Origin: Thermoplasmata archaeon
GTDB taxonomy: Archaea; Thermoplasmatota; Thermoplasmata; Lutacidiplasmatales; UBA184
Direction of reading: 5' to 3'
Assembly (NCBI GenBank): GCA_035502015.1
Contig: DATJVA010000001.1
Span: 676-64,675 of the forward strand
Length of the DNA stretch: 64,000 bases
The notes beneath the pieces are model-generated. The model was not told where the DNA came from and did no database searches. It saw nothing but the letters and a program-made list of their open reading frames with translations. The position numbers and the translations under genes were made by a program. This document shows, one piece after another, positions 4,163-54,645 of the stretch (position 1 is the first letter of the stretch; the number at the start of each line of letters is the position of its first letter).

Positions 4163-5596
4163 CTACGACGGCGGCGCGGTCCCCTTCTTCGGCCGGTACT
4201 TCTCGATGAACTCGGGGCGGATCCGCTTCAGCTCGGAGTCGGGGAAGTCGGAGAGGATATCCCACGCGAGCGCGAGGCTCTCGTCGATCGTCCGGTCCTC
4301 GTCCGGGCGCTGGTTGACGAACTCCGTCTCGAACCGGTCGGCCATCCTGAGGTAGAGGCGGTCGGTCGCGCTGAGCGCCTCCTCGCCGACGATCGCGGAG
4401 AGCGACCGCTGGTCCTTTCCCGTCGCGTACGCCGCGAACAGTTGGTCGGAGAGCCCGCGGTGATCCTCCCGCGTCCGTCCCTTGCCGATCCCCTGGCCCA
4501 TCAGTCGCGAAAGGGACGGCAGGATGTCGATCGGCGGGTAGATGCCGCGACGCTGGAGGTCACGGCTGACGTAGACCTGGCCCTCGGTGATGTACCCCGT
4601 CAGGTCGGGGATCGGGTGCGTCACGTCGTCCGCGGGCATCGTCAGGATCGGGATCTGCGTGATCGACCCCTTGCGCCCGTGGATCTTGCCCGCGCGCTCG
4701 TACAGGGTCGCGAGGTCGGTGTAGAGATACCCCGGGTACCCCCGGCGGCCCGGCACTTCCTCGCGCGCGGCCGAGACCTCGCGGAGCGCCTCGCAGTAGT
4801 TCGTCATGTCGGTCAGCACGACCAGGATGTGGAGGTCGCGCTCGTAGGCGAGGAACTCGGCGGCGGTGAGCGCCATGCGCGGCGTCACGACGCGCTCCAT
4901 CGACGGGTCGGAGGAGAGGTTCAGGAAGACGACCGCGCGCTCGAGCGCACCGGTCGACTCGAACTCTTTGAGGAAGAAGTTCGCCTCCTCGCTCGTGATC
5001 CCCATCGCGGCGAAGACCACGGCGAACCCCTCGGAAGAGTCCCGGAGCTTCGCCTGCCGGACGATCTGAGCCGCGATCTGATTGTGCGGAAGGCCCGCGC
5101 CCGAAAAGATCGGGAGCTTCTGGCCCCGAACGAGCGTGTTGTTGACGTCGATGGTCGAGATCCCGGTCTGGATGAACTCGCTCGGCTCCTCGCGCGAGTA
5201 CGGGTTCATCGCGCTCCCGACGATCTCGAGCTGCGTCTCGCTGACGATCCTCGGGCCGCCGTCCCTCGGCTCGCCGAGGCCCGTGAAGACGCGACCGAGC
5301 ATCTCGTCCGAGACGGGAAGCTTCGCGACCTCACCGAGGAACTTGACGCTCGTCTTCTCGAGATTGATTCCCATCGTCGCGCCGAACACCTGGACGATGG
5401 CGAGCCCCTTGCGGGAGTCGAGCACCTGGCCCTGGCGCCGCTCGCCGGTCGGCAGCTGGACCTCGACGATCTCTCCGTAGGCCGCGTTCGCGACGTCGCG
5501 GACGAACAGAAGCGGTCCTGCGACCCGGTCGATCGTGCGGTAGTCGACGGGCACGGCCGAAACATCTCCCGCCGAGGAGGTACCTTTCGCCGCCAT
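4163..5596 (-). CDS. atpB: A-type ATP synthase subunit B (regulatory)
   Basis: 477 aa, clear A/V-type B-subunit sequence ([34 protein letters not shown]... [12 protein letters not shown]). Its start shares 1 nt with the atpA stop (TGATG). Confidence 0.95.
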
Positions 5597-8500
5597 CAGC
5601 TGCTCCCGGCGGCCGTGAGCGCTCCGACCGCGAGCTCGGTCTCCCGCTCAAGATCGTCGAACTGCTTGTCCGCCTCCGCCTCGGGAATCCACTTCATGCG
5701 CGAGAGCTTCGTGCGGACCGGCATCTGCTGCAGGTTCGCGACCGTCACGCCCTTTGCGACGGCATCCTGTTCGAGGTCACCGAACTTGAGGATCATGCGC
5801 AGCATCTTCGCCTGCTTGCCGATCGATGTGTACGTGTCGACCTCGTCGTACGCGCTCTGCTGGAGGTAGTCCTCCCGTAGCATCCGCGAGACGTCGAGGA
5901 TCGCTTTCTCCCGCTCGGGAAGCGCATCGACGCCGACGAGCTGCACGATCTCCTGGAGCTCGGCCTCCTTCTGGAGCGTCTCGAGCGCTTTCTGGCGGAG
6001 CGCGGAGAAGTCCTTCGAGAGCGACTGGGAGTACCACGACTCCAAGTCGCGCGTGTAGAGCGAATAGCTCTGGAGCCAGTTGATCGACGGGAAGTGGCGC
6101 CGGGACGCGAGCGAGGCATCCAGCGCCCAGAAGACGCGGGCGATTCGGAGCGTGTTCTGGCTCACCGGCTCCGACGTGTCTCCGCCGGGAGGTGAGACGG
6201 CTCCTACCACGGTGATGGACCCGGTGCGCCCCTCGGGGGAGACCGTGACGACGCGGCCCGAGCGCTCGTAGAACTCGGCGACGCGTCGACCGAGGTACGC
6301 GGGATATCCTTCCTCTCCGGGCATCTCCTCGAGGCGCCCGGAGATCTCGCGCATCGCCTCGGCCCATCGACTGGTCGAGTCGGCCATCAGCGCGACGTCG
6401 TAACCCATGTCCCGGTAATACTCGGCGATAGTGATCCCGGTGTAGACACTCGCCTCGCGGGCGGCGACCGGCATGTTCGAGGTGTTCGCGATCAGCACCG
6501 TCCGTTCCATCAGCGGTCGGCCCGATTTTGGGTCCTGGAGCTTCGGGAACGTTGCCAGCACTTCCGCCATCTCGTTGCCGCGTTCGCCACAGCCGACGTA
6601 GACAACGATGTCCGAGTCGGCCCACTTCGCGAGCTGCTGTTGGGTGACGGTGTTGTGCAGGAGGATGGCGCCGAACCCCCCGACGAAGTTCGCCCCAAAT
6701 TCCGGCAGCGCGAAGTCGAAGACGTCGAACGGACCCACCTCTTCCCGCACCTCGACGACCTCGTCGCAGAAGACCCATTCCAGCATGTCGCGCAGCCGCG
6801 AGGCGGCGGGCTCGAGCGAGTCCAGCGACCCGAGGGCGCGGTACGGGTTGATGAAGCGCTGGAAGGTGTATGCTCCCATGCGCTCGCCGTTCCCGATATA
6901 GTTGTGGATCTCGATGCCGTCCTCGAGGAGCGCGGAGTAGGTGAAGTGGTCCCGATAGAGTCTCTCGATCGCGTCGGGAGAAAGAGGGACAACGTCGGTG
7001 GCCGTGTAGGACGTGCGCTTCGACTCGGTGTACTGCCGGATCGCCGCGAGCTTGGGATGGTCAGCGCCCACGGCGTCGTAGAGCTTGTCCAGATTGAAGA
7101 TGCCCCGTACGAAGAGGCGGAAGTAGGTCGTGCCGTCGACGACGCGCCGTCCCATCGAGCAGGTGATTCCGAACCGAGAAAGGGCGTACGCGAGCTCGGT
7201 CTGGAGCGCCCCGCTCTTCGTACAGAACTCGATCTCGCCTTGCGACAGCCCGCCGTCGCCGAGGTAGTACCCCCGGAGGAACCCGCCGAGGACGTCGTTG
7301 TCGGAAGCAAGAACCGCGCCCGGGATGCGTTTCTCGCCGGAATTCCTCCCGGACCCGAACCAGTCCATGAGGTGGACGAGCGAGGTGCTTGCCACGAGCA
7401 CGTTCGGAGTCTTGCCGGGGGTTCGCTCAACCTTGCCCTCGATTCCGAAGAGATTGCGGGTGAGGGCGAGGAAGCGGCTCAGAAGCATCTCGTCCGAGTT
7501 GGTGAACACCACGGTCCGGTTGCCGCGGATGTAGCCTTCGGAGGCGAAGAGCCCCAAGAACTCTCCGAGTTCCTCCGACATGGCGTCGGGAATCCGTAGG
7601 GCCTTCCCCTTTCGCTGAAGTTCCGGTGGCTGCGGTCGGAGCGCTCGGGTCCCGACGGGGCTCGGGGTTCGACGAACCGATGCGATGTAGTCTCCTGGTC
7701 GCAGGTCGCGGGCGGCCCTCTCCTGGAGCGCGCCGTCCGGGGTGAACGCGAAGAGTCGGTGCACCGGAGTGACGCGGACGCTCTTCCCCGAGCGCGTCCG
7801 CACGCGTACGAGAGTGTCGCTCTTTCCCCTGTAGGCGGTGTGGGAGCGGCTTCGGACGAGCGACCCGTTGACCAGCGAGAACAGTTCGATTGGCTGCCGG
7901 AGGTCGACCCACTCATCGGAACCCTCCGAGCGTACTTCGCCCCTCGCCCGGACGGAAGCGTACAGCGTCTCGATGCTGACGACTTCCCCGGTGCCGAGTA
8001 GGACTGGGGTCTCTCCTCCGACACACTTGCCCGACCCGAACGGCCCCGGAATGCAGGCGGTCCCCCCCTTGGCCACGGGATAGAACGTATCGATCACTCT
8101 CTGCCCGGTCACGAGCGGAATGTCGGGCGCGAGTTTCTGGGTGACCGGGCGAGGGATTCGGACGACCCACTTGTGGGAGAGATAGAGCGGGACCGTCCCG
8201 GTCGCCGTCGTGAGCGAGCCGATCGGGTCGCGGATCGTGTACTTGCCGCTCTTCAGGTCGGCCAGGGTCCCGCGGAGTCCGGGCGGCACTAGGATCTTGT
8301 GAACGATGAGCGCGGTCTCCTGGACCGTGCCGAGTATTGTCCCGGGGGTGACCTCCGTGCCGACCTTGGCGGTCGCGGAGAACTCCCAGACGGCCTTCTC
8401 GTCGAGCGGGGTCGCCGACGTTCCGCGGGTGATGAAGTCGCCCACGGACTTCTGGACGACGTCGAGCGGGCGCTGGATCCCGTCGTAGATCGACTTCAGG

Positions 8501-8772
8501 AGCCCCGGCCCGAGCTCGACGCTGAGCGCTTGGCCGGTGCTCTCGACCGGGTCGCCCGGCCGGATACCGGTAGTGTCCTCGTAGACCTGAACGGTGGCCG
8601 TCCCCTCCACGAGGCGGATGATCTCTCCGACGAGGCCCAGCGTCCCCACGCGGACGACGTCGTACATCTTCGCATCGACCAATCCCTCGGCGATGACCAC
8701 GGGGCCGGAAACTCGTGCTACCGATCCTGCCATGTTCTTCCCTTCGCTCGATTCGAGTGATTCGTAAGACAC
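5596..8772 (-). CDS. atpA: A-type ATP synthase catalytic subunit A, interrupted in-frame by a 458-aa intein (extein about 600 aa)
   Basis: N-extein ends ...GPFGSGK (P-loop), followed by Cys. C-extein resumes at [32 protein letters not shown] after ...LLHN. The ATG abuts the atpF stop. Confidence 0.95.
6652..8025 (-). mobile_element. Full-length intein with LAGLIDADG homing-endonuclease domain, inserted in the AtpA P-loop (GPFGSGK|C ... HN|T; VMA-a-type site)
   Basis: Cys+1 at codon 250 (nt 8025-8023), verified against the DNA. Terminal His-Asn at codons 706-707, next residue Thr. Two LAGLIDADG blocks ([10 protein letters not shown] and [14 protein letters not shown]). Confidence 0.85.
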
Positions 8773-9129: not shown

Positions 9130-9146
9130 CAGCGTATTTAAGGCCT
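9130..9146 (-). promoter_or_regulatory. TATA-like element (TTAAATA on coding strand) about 28 nt upstream of the atpF ATG; probable leaderless promoter of the atpFABDHI operon
   Basis: Forward gtatttaagg at 9134-9143. No SD before the atpF ATG at 9110. Confidence 0.35.
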
Positions 9147-37624: not shown

Positions 37625-38620
37625 ATGCCCGGATTCCCTCGCCTTCAGGAGCGCTACGACATCATCGTCGTCGGCGGGGGCCACGCCGGCCTCCAAGCGG
37701 CGGTGAAGGCCGCCCTCCTCCAGCATACGACCGCCCTTCTCGACCGGGGCCCGAAGTACTCGCGTTCGTACTATGCCCCGCATATGATGAACGTCCCGGG
37801 GTTCCCGGACGGTGTCTCGGGCCACCACCTGCTCGACCAGCAGATCGCCGCGGTCCGGAAGTTCGAGGACAAGGTCGGCTACTTCACTCCGGCCGCGGTG
37901 ACCTCGGTCGAGAGGGGGCCGGACGACTTCGTCGTGACGTTCGAATGGCTGAAGCGGACGCACGTGACGCGGGGCCGGGCCGTGGTTCTCGCGATGGGCG
38001 TCGTCGACCGGATCCCGGTCGTCGGCGGCAAGATCGACACGATATTCCCCTGGGCGAACCAGGCGATCGTCGACTTCTGCCTCGTCTGCGATGGTTGGGA
38101 CCTCGTCGATCGGTCGGTCGCGGTGCTGGGCCATGACGCGTTCGCGGCGCGTACCGCGCTCGACATCCTCTCGTTCCGGCCGAAGTCGGTCGAACTGCTG
38201 ACCCACGGCCGCCCGCTGCTCGACGGAGTGCCCGAGCCCGACCGGTCCACCCTCGCGGCCGCTCTCATCGAGCACGGGATCCCGCACCTCACCTCCGAGA
38301 TGGTCGGCTTCGACGGCATCCGGGAAAAGCAGTTCGTCGTCCGGTTCGCGGACGGGACGCACCGGACCTACGACCGAGGGTTCAGCGGCCTTGGCTGGTA
38401 CGACATGCACCAGACGATCCCGCGCTCGCTCGGTTGCCGGTTCGACGCGGACGGGTATGTCGTCACGGACGACGACTGCCGCGCCCTGTCGGAAGCGACC
38501 GGTGAGCCGATCCCCGGCCTCTACTGCGTCGGGGACCAACGCAACGGTTGGAACCAGATCCCCGAGGCGTGGGCGACCGCCGAACGGGCGGTCGTTCACG
38601 CGTGGGCGTCGTACCTCTAG
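37625..38620 (+). CDS. trxB: Thioredoxin-reductase-like FAD/NAD(P)-dependent disulfide oxidoreductase
   Basis: YDIIVVGGGHAGLQAA (FAD GxGxxG) and FCLVCDGWD (CxxC redox site, cf. TrxR CATCDG). Confidence 0.7.
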   Translation: MPGFPRLQERYDIIVVGGGHAGLQAAVKAALLQHTTALLDRGPKYSRSYYAPHMMNVPGFPDGVSGHHLLDQQIAAVRKFEDKVGYFTPAAVTSVERGPDDFVVTFEWLKRTHVTRGRAVVLAMGVVDRIPVVGGKIDTIFPWANQAIVDFCLVCDGWDLVDRSVAVLGHDAFAARTALDILSFRPKSVELLTHGRPLLDGVPEPDRSTLAAALIEHGIPHLTSEMVGFDGIREKQFVVRFADGTHRTYDRGFSGLGWYDMHQTIPRSLGCRFDADGYVVTDDDCRALSEATGEPIPGLYCVGDQRNGWNQIPEAWATAERAVVHAWASYL

Positions 38621-41348: not shown

Positions 41349-42239
41349 TCAGCGACGAGAGACGGAAGGACGGGTCGCCGGGGTCTCCGGAAGGCGAACG
41401 GCCGTGTCGAGGGATCCGAGGATCTGTTTTCGTCTTCGCCGTCGGTCGTCCCGGAGTTGCTCGGCCCAGTCGGTCTTCCGGACGTCGTCGTCCAGCCCGA
41501 CGAGGATCATGTCAAGGTCGTGGAGGTCCCCGAGGTCCTTCTGGAGCCGGGCGAGAGAGCTCGGGAACGCGCGCTCGTGCTCCGGGTCGAGCACGACCGC
41601 GAGGTCGGAGAATTGGCGGGCCCGACGGATTCGTATCCGCAGTCGGTGCAGACGTTCCATGGTCGGACGGCGAACCGCTTTGCGATGGGCCGCCGCCAGC
41701 TTCTGGTGAGTGCGGTCGTGGGCGGCTCGCACGGCCCGACGACTGTCCCGGAACGAACCCGAGCGGGGAAGGCTCCGGAGCCGCTCGGCGACGTCGTCGA
41801 GGAGCCGTGCCTGGCGCTCAGAGCGGAGGAAGGCGCGCAGGAGCTCCCGTCCCGTCCGGGCATCGTCCTGTACCCTCTTTCGGTACTGTTCGACCCGCTC
41901 GGTGTCCCGACGGGACGCCGACGCCCGGTCGAACCGCTGGAGGAGGGCGAGCGCGATGTCCCGGTCGCGGATCCGTCCAACGAGACGCGAAAGGCGCTTC
42001 ACGCGGACGTCCAGCGGGTGGAGGAGCTCGCGCTCCGCGCCGGGGAGCAGCGCTTCCCAAAGGGCGAGGCCGGTCCGCAACTTGCGCATCTGACGATGGA
42101 GGCGATGAAGGCTCTCCGGGGACGGGTGAGGGGCGGCGACCACGAAGTCGACCGCCTTCGTGACATCCTCGAGGATCCGCGCGATTTCGCGTGCGACGAG
42201 CTCGGGACGGATGGCGCCGTTGCGCTCGCTCGGGGCCAT
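41349..42239 (-). CDS. CHAD-domain protein (conserved histidine alpha-helical domain; polyphosphate-associated)
   Basis: All-helical, Arg/His-rich with repeated H.LR..R.LR patterns (ESLHRLHRQMRKLRTGLALWE..., ...RLHRLRIRIRRARQ). Divergent from ppx. Confidence 0.65.
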   Translation of the reverse strand: MAPSERNGAIRPELVAREIARILEDVTKAVDFVVAAPHPSPESLHRLHRQMRKLRTGLALWEALLPGAERELLHPLDVRVKRLSRLVGRIRDRDIALALLQRFDRASASRRDTERVEQYRKRVQDDARTGRELLRAFLRSERQARLLDDVAERLRSLPRSGSFRDSRRAVRAAHDRTHQKLAAAHRKAVRRPTMERLHRLRIRIRRARQFSDLAVVLDPEHERAFPSSLARLQKDLGDLHDLDMILVGLDDDVRKTDWAEQLRDDRRRRRKQILGSLDTAVRLPETPATRPSVSRR

Positions 42240-42328
42240 CCGGAACCCTCGGCCGGGCAGACCAAGTCCCCCACCTAAACCATTCGGAAGGGGCGGTCCC
42301 TAAGCCGGATTTCACCCGAGCCCTCATA

Positions 42329-42342
42329 GAGACGTACGTCTC
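42329..42342. promoter_or_regulatory. Perfect 14-bp palindrome GAGACGTACGTCTC in the CHAD/ppx divergent promoter region
   Basis: Read directly. Lies just 3' of a TATA-like TCATAGAG positioned about 27 nt upstream of the 42353 ATG. Confidence 0.35.
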
Positions 42343-42352
42343 TCGTCTCCTC

Positions 42353-43909
42353 ATGCACCGGGCCCGTCTCGCTGACCTCGAGCGAGACGGTCGTCCGGCC
42401 CGCTCGGAGTCGACCATCGGCGTGATGGACATCGGCTCGAACACGGCCCGGTGCGTTGTGTTCGACGCCTCGACGGCGGGTACGGTGCGACCGGTCTACG
42501 AAACGAAGGACGCGCCTCGCCTCGGCTCCGGGACCGGGGCCGATGGGAGCCTCTCTCCCGAGGCGATGGTGCGCGGCGTCACGACCGTCCGCCGTTTCGC
42601 GCGCACGCTGCGGGCGTTCAAGGTGCCGAAGACGCTCGCCGTGGCGACGAGCGCTGTCCGGGACGCTCCGAACGGCCCCGACTTCGTCCGGGACGTCGCA
42701 CGGGCGACCGGGGTGACGCTCCGAACGATCTCGGGAACCGAGGAAGCGCGGTACGCCTACCTCGGGCTCGCGAGCGCCTGGGAGCTCTCAAACGACCTCG
42801 TCTGCGACCTGGGCGGTGGGTCGCTCCAGATCGCGGAGGTGCGTGACGGAGCGCTCCGCAACTCCGTGAGCCTTCCCCTCGGAGCCTTGCGGCTCTCCCA
42901 GCGGTTCTTCGACCACGACCCTCCGAAGCGCCGGGAGTACGACGCGCTGCGCGAGCACGTGCAGGGGACGCTCGCCTCCGTACTCGAGGCGTTCGGTGGG
43001 ACCCGCTACCGTCTCTTCGGGGTCGGGGGCACCGTCCGGTCGCTCGCCCGCGCGGCGATCGAGTTCCGCGAGTACCCCGTGCGCCGGGTCCATGGCTATC
43101 CGCTCTACGAGAACGACATCGAGGCGCTCGAGGAGCTCCTCGGAGAGATGCCGAGCACGCGGCGTCGCGCGATCCCCGGCATCGGGGGCGACCGAGCGGA
43201 CGTCGTGCTCGCGGGGATCGTCGTCTTCTCCGAGCTTCTGCGCGCGGTGAAGGTGGACCGGATCATCGTCTCGGGCACGGGGATCCGGGAAGGGATCGCG
43301 CTCGAGTCGGTCGGGGCAAAGCTCCCGGCGCCGGCCGAGACGCTCGCCGCGCGGTCGGCCGCGGCCGCCTCCGAGTCGTTCGCTTTCGACCTCGAGCACG
43401 GGCGCGAGGTCGCCGATACGGCGACGACGCTGTTCCGTCTCCTCGCCGACCGTTTCGAGGCGGGGCGGAGCGAGGAGCTGGCGCTCCGCGTCGCCGCGTG
43501 GATGCACGACGCGGGGGTGGCAGTCGACCTGTGGAACCACGCCCGACACTCCTCCTACCTGATCCAGAACTACCCGATCTGGGGGCTCGACCAGCGGGAA
43601 GTGCTTCTCGCCGCGATGGCGGCGTACCTTCACGAAGGGACCGCGGCTCCCTCCGAGTGGAAGAAGGGGTTCCTTCCGATCATCCATCCTCCCGACCTGG
43701 AGAACGCGGTCCGCCTCGGCGCGATCCTCGGGGTCGCGGAGATCCTTGCCCCCGTCCACCCCCGGTTCTCCCTCGCGGGCGACGGTCGCACGCTGGCAGT
43801 GAGCTTTTCTACGACGAGCAGTACGACCCTTCCCCCGCGGTGGGCCGAGAAGGTTCGCAAGCCGATGGAACGGGTGTTCGAGCTCGAGGTGCGTCATCGA
43901 GATGCCTGA
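42353..43909 (+). CDS. ppx: Ppx/GppA-family exopolyphosphatase/guanosine pentaphosphatase with C-terminal HD-like domain
   Basis: MDIGSNTARCVVF (actin-fold phosphate-1 motif), ...DLGGGS..., and C-terminal WMHDAGVAVDLWNHARHS. Start 42353 (leaderless) or 42422/42425. Confidence 0.85.
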   Translation: MHRARLADLERDGRPARSESTIGVMDIGSNTARCVVFDASTAGTVRPVYETKDAPRLGSGTGADGSLSPEAMVRGVTTVRRFARTLRAFKVPKTLAVATSAVRDAPNGPDFVRDVARATGVTLRTISGTEEARYAYLGLASAWELSNDLVCDLGGGSLQIAEVRDGALRNSVSLPLGALRLSQRFFDHDPPKRREYDALREHVQGTLASVLEAFGGTRYRLFGVGGTVRSLARAAIEFREYPVRRVHGYPLYENDIEALEELLGEMPSTRRRAIPGIGGDRADVVLAGIVVFSELLRAVKVDRIIVSGTGIREGIALESVGAKLPAPAETLAARSAAAASESFAFDLEHGREVADTATTLFRLLADRFEAGRSEELALRVAAWMHDAGVAVDLWNHARHSSYLIQNYPIWGLDQREVLLAAMAAYLHEGTAAPSEWKKGFLPIIHPPDLENAVRLGAILGVAEILAPVHPRFSLAGDGRTLAVSFSTTSSTTLPPRWAEKVRKPMERVFELEVRHRDA

Positions 43910-44600
43910 GATCCCCTCACCGAACCACGGCTTTCCCGGTCGGTTGCTGGTCTTTGAGGGCCTCGACGGGAGCGGCAAGTCGACCCAGGCGGCGCTGCTC
44001 GGGAAGTGGCTCCAGTCGAACGGCTACCGGGTCTTCTTCACCGAGTGGAACTCCTCCGAGCTCGTCTCGAGCACGATCCGGCGCGGAAAGAAGAAGGGCC
44101 TTCTCACGCCCACGACCTTCTCGCTCCTGCACGCGGTCGACTTCGCGGACCGGTTCGAGCGGAAGATCCTGCCGCCCCTGCGGGCGGGGTATCTTGTCGT
44201 CTGCGACCGGTACGCCTACACGGCGTTCGTCCGGGACGCGGCCCGTGGCTGCGACCCGGCGTGGGTCCGCATGATCTACTCGTTCGCTCCGCGACCGGAC
44301 CGCGTGTTCTACTTCCGGGTCCCGGTGGCGGTGACGCTGAAGCGCAAGCTCGCCTCGCGCCTCAAGATGAACTACTACGAGGCCGGGATGGACCTGGGAC
44401 TCTCGGACGACCTCGTCGAGAGCTACCAGCGGTTCCAGGGGCGCCTGAAGCGCGAATACGACCGCCTCTCGACGATCGACGACTTCCGGGTGATCGACGC
44501 GACGCGCTCGGTCGAGGCGATCCAGGCGAACCTGCGCGCCGACCTGAAACCCCTGCTCGCAAAGTTCCCGACGGGAACGCGGTTGATGCATGATGGATAG
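43902..44600 (+). CDS. tmk: Thymidylate kinase family protein (paralog 1)
   Basis: LVFEGLDGSGKST (P-loop), ...LTPTTFSLLHAVDFADRFERKILPPLRAGYLVVCDRYAYTAFV (DRY motif), PDRVFYFRVP (lid). Overlaps the ppx stop by 8 nt. Confidence 0.75.
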   Translation: MPEIPSPNHGFPGRLLVFEGLDGSGKSTQAALLGKWLQSNGYRVFFTEWNSSELVSSTIRRGKKKGLLTPTTFSLLHAVDFADRFERKILPPLRAGYLVVCDRYAYTAFVRDAARGCDPAWVRMIYSFAPRPDRVFYFRVPVAVTLKRKLASRLKMNYYEAGMDLGLSDDLVESYQRFQGRLKREYDRLSTIDDFRVIDATRSVEAIQANLRADLKPLLAKFPTGTRLMHDG

Positions 44601-45306
44601 GACGTACGGTACCCGGCTTCCCGGGATGACGGAGGACGAGCTCGTCGGGAAGCTCGTCGTCGTCGAAGGGGCCGACGGTTCGGGACGGACGACCGAGGTC
44701 GCCCTCCTCCGGCAGTGGCTCGAGGTCGAGGGCCACGCGGTCGTCGATACCGGGTTGCGTCGCTCCGACCTCGTGAGCGGCGAGATCGACCGCGCGAAGC
44801 AGGGCCACACGCTCGCGTCGACCACCATGGCGCTCCTCTACGCCGCCGACTTCGCCGACCAGCTCGAGAACAAGATCGTCCCGGCGCTCGCGGCCGGAAG
44901 CACCGTCCTCGCCGACCGGTACATCTACACCCTGATGGCGCGCGCGATCGCCCGCGGCGCCTCCCGGGAGTACGCCCGCCAGCTGTACGGCTTCGCCCTC
45001 CGTCCCGACCTGGTCGTCTTCCTCGATGCCCGTCCCGAGATCCTGCTCCACCGGTCGATCGGGAAGTACGGGTCCCTCGACTACTGGGAGTCCGGGATGG
45101 ACCTCTGCCTCTCCCGCGACCTCTTCGAGAGCTTCTTCCTCTACCAGGACCTCCTCTCGAAGGAGTTCGAGTGGATGGCCGCGAAGTACGGATTCCACAC
45201 CGTCGACGCGAACGGCAGTCCGGAGCAGGTCCACGCGGACGTCCAGCGACTGGTGGCCCCCCTGTACGACCCACCGCGTCGCGCGGCCCGACGACGGCGA
45301 CGCTGA
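44590..45306 (+). CDS. Thymidylate kinase family protein (paralog 2)
   Basis: VVVEGADGSGRTT, ...ALLYAADFADQLENKIVPALAAGSTVLADRYIYT, PDLVVFLDARP. Overlaps paralog 1 by 11 nt. Confidence 0.7.
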   Translation: MMDRTYGTRLPGMTEDELVGKLVVVEGADGSGRTTEVALLRQWLEVEGHAVVDTGLRRSDLVSGEIDRAKQGHTLASTTMALLYAADFADQLENKIVPALAAGSTVLADRYIYTLMARAIARGASREYARQLYGFALRPDLVVFLDARPEILLHRSIGKYGSLDYWESGMDLCLSRDLFESFFLYQDLLSKEFEWMAAKYGFHTVDANGSPEQVHADVQRLVAPLYDPPRRAARRRRR

Positions 45307-45356
45307 CGGTACGGTCTACCTGGTCGGCCGCTCGTGCAACGGCGGTGGGAACGACC

Positions 45357-45893
45357 CTAGTCGCGTTTCGCGGCGAGCTGTTTTCGAGTCAGTAGCCAGA
45401 CGAGGCGTCCCGCACCCGGGCGAACCGAGTTCGAGAACTCGAGACAGACCGCTCCACCTTTCGTGAGGTGGACCACGGAGAGGCCCTCTCCGGTGAGCGC
45501 CTCGCCCACGAACTCCGCGAGCGTCGGCTCGTGCCCGACCAGCACGACGGTCTCCTTCGGATGCGCTGAGCGACGGATCCGGTCGAAGATCGGGGTCGCC
45601 AGGTTGCCCGGCGCGAGCTCCTCCCACGTCTCGGGAGTAGGAGCCTTCGACAGCTCCCGACGGATCAGTTCCGCCGTGCGGAGGGCGCGGTCGGCCGAAC
45701 TGGACGCGAGCCGGTCGGCGGAGCGGACGACGTGGGCGAGCCCCTTCGCCGCCCGGCGTGTCTCGCCCTCGCCCTTGCGAGTGAGCGGCCGAAGGTCGTC
45801 ATCCGGCCAACGAGCGGGGTCCCGGACCTCGGCGGGGCCGTGACGAACGGCGATGACACGAATCGCTTTGGAGCGAACCTGCTTGCGCGGCAC
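45357..45893 (-). CDS. Histidine-phosphatase superfamily protein (SixA/phosphohistidine phosphatase-like)
   Basis: VIAVRHGPAE (RHG catalytic motif) ... VVLVGHEPTL (second His), about 178 aa. Confidence 0.7.
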   Translation of the reverse strand: MPRKQVRSKAIRVIAVRHGPAEVRDPARWPDDDLRPLTRKGEGETRRAAKGLAHVVRSADRLASSSADRALRTAELIRRELSKAPTPETWEELAPGNLATPIFDRIRRSAHPKETVVLVGHEPTLAEFVGEALTGEGLSVVHLTKGGAVCLEFSNSVRPGAGRLVWLLTRKQLAAKRD

Positions 45894-45946: not shown

Positions 45947-46882
45947 CTATGGAGGCTGGGCCGGGATCGCGGCAATACGTCGTCCGTGCGCTTTTGCGTC
46001 GGACCCGGCCGCCGGGGCACAGCGGTCGAGCGCAACTTGCGCGATGTCCTGGGAGTAGGCGACCGTCCGGCCGATCGATTCGAGGATCCGGGTCACCGCG
46101 GCGGCGGTCGCCGGGGGCATCGTTCCACCCCCGACCGCCGGGAGCAGACGCTCGGAAAGGGCCCGACCGGAAGCCTGGAGCGCCTCGCCAATGTCGAGCA
46201 GGTCGTTCGCCGCCGCGTCGTTCGCGACCTCGAGAACCCCTTCGAGATGCTCCATCGCTTGATGGTGGAACTGGTGGAGGGTCGTCACGGGTCCGCCCCC
46301 GCTCGGAAGGTCAACAAGCCGCCGTCCCACCTCGCCGATCACGACCGCGTGGTCGGCAATCCGCTCAAGGCTCCGTGCGGTCGTCCACGGGCCCAGCCAC
46401 TCAGACCCCCGTCCGCCGGCGCCAAGGCGGATCACCGCGACCCGTTCTACGTACCACGCCTCTCGGTCGATCTCGTCGTCGCGTCGTTCCCAGTACCCGT
46501 CCTCCAGGAACGGAAGATGGGACCAGCTCTCCACGGCCTCTCGGTGGAAGTCGACAACGAGCCGCCCCATGCGGACGATCCGCTGCTCGAGGGGGATCGG
46601 GCTTTCGAACGCGAGGTCGCGCAGCTGGACGGAGCCCGGCTCGTCCGAAATGATCTCGGGCTGGCGGGTCCTCCGGCAGAAGGTGCGGACCACGTCCCGC
46701 GTGCCGGCACTGATCGTCGGACGCTCCCGCACCGAGAACTGGCGGGCTCCGGCAAGGTACGCTCCCAGGAGGCGGCGGAAGAGGTGCTCGGATGGCTCTC
46801 CTCGGCTCACGTAGAGGACCACCTCTTCGATTGCGGCCGTTTGGTCGATCGGATCGCGCTTTGCGCCGGACGCCGCGCGCAT
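45947..46882 (-). CDS. PhoU-domain phosphate-uptake-regulator-like protein (start uncertain: 46882, 46984 or 47011)
   Basis: Two PhoU-type helical repeats (IVRMGRLVVDFHREAVESW and SLERIADHAVVIGEVGRRL, cf. ERIGDHA.NIAE). Confidence 0.6.
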   Translation of the reverse strand: MRAASGAKRDPIDQTAAIEEVVLYVSRGEPSEHLFRRLLGAYLAGARQFSVRERPTISAGTRDVVRTFCRRTRQPEIISDEPGSVQLRDLAFESPIPLEQRIVRMGRLVVDFHREAVESWSHLPFLEDGYWERRDDEIDREAWYVERVAVIRLGAGGRGSEWLGPWTTARSLERIADHAVVIGEVGRRLVDLPSGGGPVTTLHQFHHQAMEHLEGVLEVANDAAANDLLDIGEALQASGRALSERLLPAVGGGTMPPATAAAVTRILESIGRTVAYSQDIAQVALDRCAPAAGSDAKAHGRRIAAIPAQPP

Positions 46883-47009
46883 CCCGCTGGAACGCTCGGG
46901 TCGGTGCTCACTTGGCCAACGGGGGGGACCCGGCGGCGACGTGGAAGAGCCTCCGCTCGCCCCCTCGGGAATCTTGGTCTTCATCGGTACAGGAATGGCC
47001 GCCGTGCGC

Positions 47010-47066
47010 ATATATAGAGTTTGAATTTAGACTATAGTTCATACTATAGCTATTGTTTACCTATCG
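47010..47066 (-). promoter_or_regulatory. AT-rich island (about 25% GC) with TATATAGAG and two ACTATAG direct repeats (CTATAG palindromic cores) immediately upstream of the PhoU-like ORF
   Basis: tatatagagtttgaatttagactatagttcatactatagctattgtttacc. It is the only strongly AT-rich stretch in the window. Confidence 0.45.
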
Positions 47067-47268
47067 GGACGCCCGATGCGCGGCTCTGCCCATTCGTAGT
47101 GGCCGAGGGCGCTTTCTGAGCCGGTCGGGCGGAGTTCGGCCACGGGTTCGAGGTCCGCGCGCCGGACGTCGCACACTGGCGTGATGGTTCCCCCATCGGC
47201 GAGAAAGTGCCGGACGGCACGTCAGGGCAGAGTCCATAAGCGGGGTCCGCATCCCTCGCGGTAAGGTC

Positions 47269-47832
47269 ATGTCGACCTCCCGCCGCTTTGCGCGGTACCG
47301 ACCCACCGAAGGCGAGGTCGGGGGACGCCGCGTCTGGGCCGTCCCGCGCGCCGGCATGTGCCTGTCGGTGTTCGTGCTCGTCGGGGACCCGAAGAACCCG
47401 AACCTGGTCGTGCTCGGTCGTCCGGCGCCCTCCGCGCCATGGGACGAGATCGGGAACCTTGAGCCCGCGTCCCTCGAGGCGCTTCAGGAGCACTGGGTGC
47501 TCCCGGCGTGCCATCTTGTCGAGTTCGAGGGCCCGCGGGCGGCCGCCGAGCGGGTCGTACGGGAGCAGCTCGGTCTCGAGCACCTCGAGCTCCGGGGGCC
47601 CGAGGTGTTCTCGGACGCGTACCCGTCCGCGACTTCTCCAGAGAGCGGCTCTCACTGGGACATCGATTTCCTGTTCCATGCGGACTGGCCCCACGGCCGC
47701 GAGCTTCACTCACCGGCGTTCCGGGAGCTCCGTCTGATCGACACCCGGACGATCGGCGCTCCCAATCTCGGGCGGGGGCACGGGGACGTCCTGATCCTCG
47801 CAGGATATCCTCTCGGCGCCCGGATGACCTGA
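47269..47832 (+). CDS. NUDIX hydrolase
   Basis: ...EFEGPRAAAERVVREQLGLE fits the Nudix box G.5E.7REvxEExGu with one E->Q. Confidence 0.55.
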   Translation: MSTSRRFARYRPTEGEVGGRRVWAVPRAGMCLSVFVLVGDPKNPNLVVLGRPAPSAPWDEIGNLEPASLEALQEHWVLPACHLVEFEGPRAAAERVVREQLGLEHLELRGPEVFSDAYPSATSPESGSHWDIDFLFHADWPHGRELHSPAFRELRLIDTRTIGAPNLGRGHGDVLILAGYPLGARMT

Positions 47833-51295: not shown

Positions 51296-51590
51296 GTTCT
51301 CGCCTCTCCCATCGTAGGTGCGTCTCCACCTCCCGGCCCCCTTCTTGTAGATTTGTCCCACCGGAACCGGACCCCCGGCAATCGCCGGACCCGGGGGCCT
51401 AGGAATACCCCGATTGTCGAACTCTTCGGCGAGCGGATCTCGCCGGAATCACGGAAGAGATCGCAGCGTTGGACAAGGGTTGAAATAACATCGTCCCGGC
51501 TGGCCGCTTTGCCCTCGCCGAACTTCCCGCGCGCAACGAAGCGGGAGGAGCACGACGGGGAGTGAATTCTCAAGGAGGTGAAAAAGCAAA

Positions 51591-51986
51591 GTGACAGAAT
51601 TGACCGAACAGAGGCTCGGCTACGGATTCGGGCTACTCGGAGGCGCCCTCATCGCCCTCGGTGGGCTGGTGAGCCTGATCGTCGGCACGGCGGACCTCAT
51701 CCTGGGCCGGCCGAACGGGGCCATCAGCGCTGCGAGCAGCGCCGTGGTCCTCTTCGTGGTCGGCGGTCTCGCGATCTTCTTCGCGTGGCTCGCTCGACAC
51801 GACTGGAGCGCTCGTCCGCTCGCGAGCGGCGTGCTGCTGGTCGTGCTCGCCGTGGTCGGATGGGCGATCGTCGGGATCGACGCGAGCCTCCTAGCGCTGG
51901 TCGGCTCGCTGTTCGCCTTCTTGGCTGGAGTGCTGTTCCTGATACAGCCCGTGAAGAAGGCGGCCGAGCTCGCGGTCGCGGCGTAG
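51591..51986 (+). CDS. Small polytopic membrane protein (about 4 TM), GTG start
   Basis: AAGGAGGTG SD 13 nt upstream of the GTG. Gly/Ala/Leu-rich TM helices. Confidence 0.55.
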   Translation: MTELTEQRLGYGFGLLGGALIALGGLVSLIVGTADLILGRPNGAISAASSAVVLFVVGGLAIFFAWLARHDWSARPLASGVLLVVLAVVGWAIVGIDASLLALVGSLFAFLAGVLFLIQPVKKAAELAVAA

Positions 51987-54572: not shown

Positions 54573-54645
54573 TGGGCCGGGACGGATTCGAACCGTCGAT
54601 CTCCGCGTTGTAAGCGCGGCGTCCTCACCGCTAGACGACCGGCCC
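54573..54645 (-). tRNA. tRNA-Val (anticodon TAC); no encoded CCA
   Basis: Cloverleaf folded by hand: acceptor GGGCCGG/CCGGCCC, D-arm GTCT/GGAC, anticodon stem CCGCG/CGCGG, loop CTTACAA, T-arm GACGG-TTCGAAT-CCGTC, discriminator A. Confidence 0.85.

Follow-up and report, generated by a model that had tools for sequence, protein, structure and literature searches.

Judging from sequence comparison with related genomes, the AT-rich island at 47010-47066 of the window, by which we mean the whole 64,000-nt (64-kb) stretch of DNA analyzed in the present study, quite probably functions as promoter and control region, with a candidate site for a regulator, for a leaderless transcription unit comprising a PhoU-like gene and probably also a SixA-like gene. 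Such an arrangement belongs to a known category, that of the archaeal promoter with an upstream control site; what is unusual about the island, which is under strong selection, is its length and its invariance. Since the host is an archaeon, probably of a Lutacidiplasmatales/UBA184-like (UBA184/TMEG) lineage, the relevant promoter model is that of BRE and TATA elements with leaderless mRNA. The order Lutacidiplasmatales has a GC content of ~69% (PMC9287336), and UBA184 is among the related loci that were compared (L012).

The island (ATATATAGAGTTTGAATTTAGACTATAGTTCATACTATAGCTATTGTTTACCTATCG) holds 15 G+C in 57 nt, i.e., 26.3% GC against 69.4% for the window as a whole, and is the lowest-GC 57-nt stretch of the 64 kb, with no second island of this kind and a runner-up minimum of 43.9% at 51560. 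The binomial chance of its composition amounts to 2.7e-11 per position and ~2e-6 over the whole window. The heptamer ACTATAG has two copies with a 12-nt offset, at 47031 and 47043, and the only other match in the whole window is an overlapping reverse-strand reading at 47032; these 3 matches compare with 0.36 expected, and a count of at least 3 was reached in 0/100 shuffles. For the hexamer CTATAG alone, the 2 copies are not significant, at least 2 being found in 33/100 shuffles. The heptamers lie in a 12-nt direct repeat pair, TTTAGACTATAG and TTCATACTATAG, in which CTATAGT is repeated directly at 12 nt. A preliminary description of this DNA, made from its letters, had reported an island of about 25% GC in DNA of about 68% GC, with two ACTATAG direct repeats spaced 12 nt apart, and both features stood up to these counts.

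The same description had set the island directly on the longest possible ATG of the PhoU-like gene. The longest ORF of this gene does run from 45947 to 47011 on the minus strand (354 aa), and its first ATG, at 47009-47011, is indeed overlapped by the island, but this is not where the gene appears to begin. A protein from a Thermoplasmata archaeon MAG, which matches the product with 100% identity, starts at the second Met, MKTK, and the N-terminus MKTK(N)P is common to most of the ~25-26 aligned homologues, none of which backs the upstream ATG. Because the homologues and the NCBI record begin at MKTK(N)P, the start is to be placed at ATG 46984 and not at 47011. The gene served by the island, with its conserved MKTK(N)P start, is accordingly annotated at 45947..46984 on the minus strand (345 aa), and by this annotation its start codon lies 25 nt beyond the TATA box.

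The conservation of the island was examined in 80 loci from GTDB species representatives, all of them Thermoplasmata MAGs, which were oriented on the PhoU-like gene; presence of the core was scored at no more than 7 mismatches to the 27-nt TATAGTCTAAATtGAaAtTCTATATAT, and column information was calculated over 74 distinct orthologous regions. This core, which is near-invariant, was found upstream of the PhoU-like gene in 75/80 loci; among the loci outside this count, four are truncated upstream and L060 carries a more diverged version. Even the most distant relative, L077, with 50% protein identity, has the variant CTATAGTCT followed downstream by TATATA, 24 nt and ATG. The distance from the end of the core (TATATAT) to the ATG is 24 nt (range 23-25) in nearly all loci, and the spacer in between is otherwise unconserved. 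Upstream of the gene, 27 columns of the 74 distinct sequences have 1.3 bits or more, and the flanks have 0.1-0.6 bits. The conserved AT-rich block is ~45 nt long and hardly varies within an order-level group. In the ppx promoter of these loci, taken as a control, 1 upstream column comes to at least 1.3 bits and the TATA-like signal does not exceed 0.9 bits. Apart from this, two whole-cluster loci came from single MAGs (SMAG_U9053, SMAG_U14978), the pairs concerned being L008/L009, L006/L009 and L046/L059, and L009 (SMAG_U9053) does not differ from L008 (UBA61) in island context, tblastn coordinates or identities; these duplicate loci look like bin redundancy or contamination and not like true paralogy.

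The part of the island nearest the gene has the anatomy of a basal promoter. On the minus strand, the TATA box TCTATATAT lies at 47010..47018, with columns of 1.6-1.9 bits over the 74 distinct orthologous regions, and its TATATAT occupies -32..-26 from the A of ATG 46984 in the window and -31..-25 in most relatives. Abutting it on the upstream side, at 47019..47023, is the BRE-like, purine-rich CAAAC, with columns of 1.1-1.3 bits and A-rich as is the BRE CGAAA; the consensus of this region is tGAaAt (core positions 13-18, 0.6-1.3 bits per column), for which the window reads TCAAAC. The spacer between TATA box and start codon, 25 nt at 46985..47009 of the minus strand, has columns of 0.1-0.5 bits, the exceptions being a T at -11 (1.3 bits) and the cgATG of the start itself (0.8-0.9 bits); at 46994-46995 (-10/-11) the window reads TT, and the 25 nt contain no Shine-Dalgarno sequence.

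In leaderless haloarchaeal genes, the TATA centre lies at -27/-28, the BRE reads CGAAA and WW is found at -10/-11, and the promoter elements are as far from the start codon as they normally are from the transcription start (PMC2151090). The island likewise has a TATA centre at ~-28 relative to the start codon, an A-rich BRE directly upstream and W at -10/-11, with no SD and with the same spacing, as in the haloarchaeal leaderless basal promoter of Brenneis et al. 2007 (PMC2151090). This BRE/TATA/W layout and the fixed spacing to the ATG therefore mark the core as an archaeal promoter of ordinary type, which would give rise to a leaderless mRNA, and the TATA promoter that had been proposed for the PhoU-like gene is supported by its conserved TATA columns and by their fixed distance to the ATG. 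From this spacing we infer that the PhoU-like mRNA would be leaderless, with a putative start at the ATG: TBP and TFB would bind the TATA box at 47018-47010 and the A-rich BRE at 47023-47019 on the minus strand, and transcription would begin at ATG 46984 or 1-2 nt before it, giving an mRNA essentially without a 5' leader.

The island differs from the haloarchaeal basal promoter in that its block is ~45 nt long instead of ~12-15 nt and is near-invariant, and it is equally unlike other promoters of the same genomes, which have a weak, short TATA-like box. In the window, other genes carry isolated TATA-like boxes of 6-9 nt, about 22-33 nt before their start codons, e.g., CTCATAGAG for ppx at 42323-42331 (plus strand), 21 nt before ATG 42353, the conserved CCATAAG for the NUDIX gene at 47234 (plus strand), 28 nt before ATG 47269, and TATTTAA for the ATPase-F gene at 9135, ~25 nt before its start. 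Because these genes use short TATA-like boxes only, the extra 30-35 nt of the island are specific to the PhoU-like gene. The quality of its TATA box and BRE is likewise out of the ordinary. This further upstream part, consisting of the TATAGTCTAAATT box at 47036-47024 and the CTAT palindrome at 47056-47043, would be dispensable for a basal promoter in this genome.

Two elements make up this upstream part, both read on the minus strand. The proximal box TATAGTCTAAATT (47024..47036) abuts the BRE, holds the first ACTATAG and has 1.4-1.9 bits per column; the distal palindromic element ACAATAGCTATAGT (47043..47056) holds the second ACTATAG, and its invariant part is CTAT at 47046-47049, in fixed register and with columns of 1.6-1.7 bits. 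The conservation upstream of the BRE consists of the TATAGTCTAAAT box, at 1.4-1.9 bits, and the distal CTAT, and nothing comparable is seen in the ppx control. The repeated CTATAG-type boxes that had been noticed in the letters are hence conserved, and chance does not account for them: the top columns of the 74 distinct orthologous regions include those of the distal CTAT and of the proximal TATAGTC.

A different reading of the same boxes would be an exceptionally strong constitutive promoter without any specific regulator, in which the upstream part acts as a UP-like, bendable or easily melted extension, as an extra contact for TBP/TFB or as a set of auxiliary TATA-like boxes. We hold this to be unlikely, yet it has several points in its favor: there are three TATA-like boxes (CTATAG, TATAGTC/TCTAAATT and TCTATATAT) within 45 nt, the TATA box and BRE of the core are near-perfect, and the extreme conservation could reflect selection for maximal basal strength. 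However, AT-richness or bendability needs no base-by-base invariance, and the G and C positions of TATAGTC are conserved like its A/T positions, at 1.5-1.8 bits, which argues against mere AT-richness or bendability. Nor do the presumably highly expressed A-type ATPase operon and the gene of ribosomal protein S15 have anything other than short TATA boxes. Moreover, the proximal box outlives a change in the BRE region, since the TATAGTCT box is kept (as CTATAGTCT) in L077, where the BRE region is altered.

The distal palindrome, for its part, changes from clade to clade and tends to retain its symmetry: the window's own clade has ACAATA-GC-TATTGT, a second one has ACTATA-CC-TATAGT, and a third has TTGCTAT-G-ATAGCAA. 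Its arms extend up to 8 nt, and the mean arm of 4.08 nt is a modest excess over the 3.38 nt of shuffles, TATA-like sequence being intrinsically self-complementary. A proximal box that outlasts divergence of the BRE, and a dyad that tends to be kept amid sequence change, are as expected of protein-binding sites. The TATAGTCTAAAT box and the CTAT palindrome are therefore most likely a candidate regulator-binding site, and in this preferred reading a sequence-specific regulator would bind the upstream boxes beside the BRE.

The position of the boxes fits this role. Next to the BRE is the usual place of archaeal activators, or of repressors that occlude TFB/TBP, and sites abutting BRE/TATA are known from the UAS of Ptr2 (Lrp family, Methanocaldococcus), the UAS of haloarchaeal GvpE and the three boxes with which Ss-LrpB controls its own promoter. 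The island resembles these sites in having boxes directly upstream of the BRE, repeats or putative dyads at about one helical turn (12 nt) and a single gene to serve; the box sequences (TATAGTCTAAAT; ACWATA-NN-TATWGT) presumably correspond to none of the Ptr2, GvpE or Ss-LrpB consensus sequences. The island differs from them in having no second target in the 682 kb scanned. In this PWM scan, which covered the window and the 80 loci, all of it DNA flanking the same locus, there was only one copy per locus, and the upstream boxes were not found at the adjacent ppx, PPK3 and CHAD promoters. The DNA scanned therefore gives no evidence of a regulon, and the restriction of the element to the PhoU-like gene in 682 kb, with no regulon visible, is a further point on the side of a constitutive promoter. 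The pattern TATAGTCTAAAT-N9-TATAT proved too permissive for a metagenome search: it turned up at least 120 matches by chance, which lay in AT-rich contigs of 18-54% GC, and among the matches listed none adjoined a PhoU-like gene.

On its other side the island faces a NUDIX gene, which it had been supposed to serve as well, and a bidirectional promoter that also drives NUDIX, or a plus-strand small RNA in 47067-47268, would be compatible with the palindromic CTATAG and the quasi-symmetric TATA boxes, and with the 200-nt, GC-rich and ORF-less gap that separates the island from NUDIX. The loci compared speak to the contrary. The NUDIX gene is adjacent to the island in 14/80 loci only, and a good many relatives have in its stead a gene of the same direction as the PhoU-like gene, whose end lies 30-70 nt upstream of the island. 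In addition, the gap 47067-47268 (~200 nt, GC-rich, no ORF) has no conserved block among 14 close relatives, its part at 47067-47230 being as unconserved as the rest, and NUDIX has its own CCATAAG box. Being rarely adjacent, separated by an unconserved gap and equipped with a box of its own, the NUDIX gene lends no support to the supposed service, and we rate a bidirectional promoter as very improbable. The neighbour on the upstream side varies among loci, but the island keeps its place at the PhoU-like gene, and it is to this gene that it is tied.

With regard to RNA, Rfam at gathering score found only a tRNA-Val at 54573-54645 in the whole window; at E<=10, only a meaningless lncRNA match appeared in 46800-47400, and ARAGORN found no tRNA nearby, i.e., the region 46800-47400 has no Rfam family or tRNA that could speak for a small RNA. 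A non-coding RNA in or beside the island was rejected on these Rfam and ARAGORN results. A conserved RNA or small ORF in the gap 47067-47268 was likewise rejected, on the absence of conservation among the 14 close relatives and on an extra insert: compared with 13 close relatives, the window has an additional unconserved, GC-rich stretch of ~85 nt at 47067-47150.

A single, AT-rich and highly conserved element of ~45 bp that has partial dyad symmetry and belongs to a GC-rich genome may also bring to mind a chromosomal site with no part in transcription, such as an origin unwinding element, an Xer/dif site or an att site. For such a site, a fixed 24-nt distance to one start codon in 75 genomes is not expected; furthermore, the flanks are without conserved ORB-like repeats (at most 0.6 bits), no orc1/cdc6, Xer or integrase gene is found among the window ORFs, and there is no GC-skew inflection near 47 kb. 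On the fixed ATG spacing, the missing genes, the unchanged skew and the unconserved flanks, replication origin, dif and att were rejected, and we give this explanation hardly any credence.

The neighbourhood of the gene offers a hint as to what a regulator might sense. A SixA-like histidine phosphatase gene (45357..45893, minus strand; Pfam His_Phos_1) lies 53 nt downstream of the PhoU-like gene and is the next gene in 72/80 loci; its product scores 70.4 bits with TIGR00249 sixA, just under the cut-off of 74.5. No TATA-like box is present in the 53-nt gap, and the two genes are probably co-transcribed, to judge by their layout. Facing them on the plus strand are two overlapping, PPK3-type dTMP-kinase-like genes (43902-44600 and 44590-45306) and the Ppx gene (42353-43909, with its real start at ATG 42353), and the polyphosphate cluster also includes a CHAD gene at 41349-42239 on the minus strand. 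In 66-72/80 loci the order is unchanged, with the island, the PhoU-like and the SixA-like gene opposite Tmk-like 2, Tmk-like 1 and Ppx. Each of the two kinase-like proteins shows 76-95% identity among 70 related loci, a conservation above that of any neighbour. An 18-nt motif, CCCAC(C/G)TAAA(C/T)CATTCGG, was also observed at 42270-42287, between the divergent CHAD and ppx genes; it is conserved in the close relatives L001-L015 and probably represents the TATA region of CHAD, whose start on the minus strand is ~30 nt downstream.

The PPK3-type polyphosphate operon of S. acidocaldarius consists of SixA, PPX, two dTMP-kinase-like subunits and CHAD (PMC12995831). Genes assigned to the same five families are clustered here at 41349-45893, with the difference that SixA is paired with the PhoU-like gene, on the opposite strand and behind the island; in the main text of the Sulfolobus paper, PhoU has 0 occurrences and Thermoplasmata are not mentioned (PMC12995831). 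The conserved polyphosphate cluster, which is the one line of evidence on the signal, suggests phosphate or polyphosphate/energy status, and it is to this that the putative regulator would respond. A PhoU-domain gene in a phosphate-related setting, with direct repeats at about one turn, is also reminiscent of the bacterial Pho box and of PhoU-PhoR-PhoB control. In contrast to the bacterial case, the promoter is an archaeal BRE/TATA promoter and not a sigma-70 one, the repeats are unrelated to the Pho box, and no pst, phoR or phoB genes are present among the ORFs of the 64-kb window.

The gene product also departs from bacterial PhoU, in being non-canonical and in having an extra, putatively Alba/IF3-C-like domain. 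It matches Pfam PhoU at 29.6 bits against a cut-off of 23.5, and it reaches 16.7 bits with the canonical PhoU model TIGR02135, below the cut-off of 130.25; by these profile scores, it is not a canonical PhoU. The AlphaFold model (pLDDT 76) comprises a disordered tail (1-60), a beta-alpha-beta-alpha-beta-beta domain (61-136) and a six-helix bundle, and the modelled bundle resembles PhoU crystal structures with a target-normalised TM of up to 0.78. The tail of 50-60 residues is rich in Pro, Gly and Arg and is conserved only in its first six residues, MKTKNP, which are specified by A-rich codons; an AT-hook in it was rejected, no GRP-type motif being seen by eye in the homologue alignment.

The domain of residues 61-136 in the numbering of the 354-aa ORF (46603-46828, minus strand) has no Pfam match. 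When modelled alone (pLDDT 88.6), its best structural matches, which are marginal (E ~1e-2, TM 0.5-0.67), are Alba/Sso10b2, IF3-C and YhbY, which share a single fold and all bind nucleic acids. This raises the thought that the upstream boxes might be an autoregulatory operator of the PhoU-like product itself, in which an Alba/IF3-C-like domain fused to a PhoU sensor bundle would respond to phosphate or to polyphosphate/energy status. We regard this as a rather doubtful proposal. If true, it would mean a previously uncharacterised kind of archaeal regulator, and the missing regulator of phosphate or polyphosphate where PhoR/PhoB are absent.

To our knowledge, how phosphate and polyphosphate are sensed and regulated in archaea without PhoR/PhoB is a largely open matter, and even the PPK3 polyphosphate kinase cluster has been described only recently (PMC12995831). 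The island provides a sharply defined cis-element of ~45 bp, which occurs order-wide at a non-canonical PhoU-like gene in an uncultured soil lineage. As a ready bait for DNA-affinity capture, it gives a concrete handle on archaeal phosphate regulation, and it may be of use in high-GC archaea as a portable leaderless promoter, probably a strong one.

A few further features of the window were recorded along the way. The catalytic subunit of the A-type ATPase (1058 aa; 5596-8772, minus strand) is split by an intein with a LAGLIDADG homing-endonuclease domain. ARAGORN calls a 90-nt tRNA-Ala(CGC) at 38106-38195 on the plus strand, within the well-supported Pyr_redox_2 ORF at 37625-38620; the call is absent from the Rfam matches at gathering score and is probably a false positive. 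Lastly, the region of second-lowest GC, 51560-51605, includes AAGGAGGTGA, a strong match to a Shine-Dalgarno sequence that lies a few nt ahead of GTG 51591, the start of a 131-aa ORF that matches no Pfam family; such an SD is unusual, since the neighbouring genes look leaderless.
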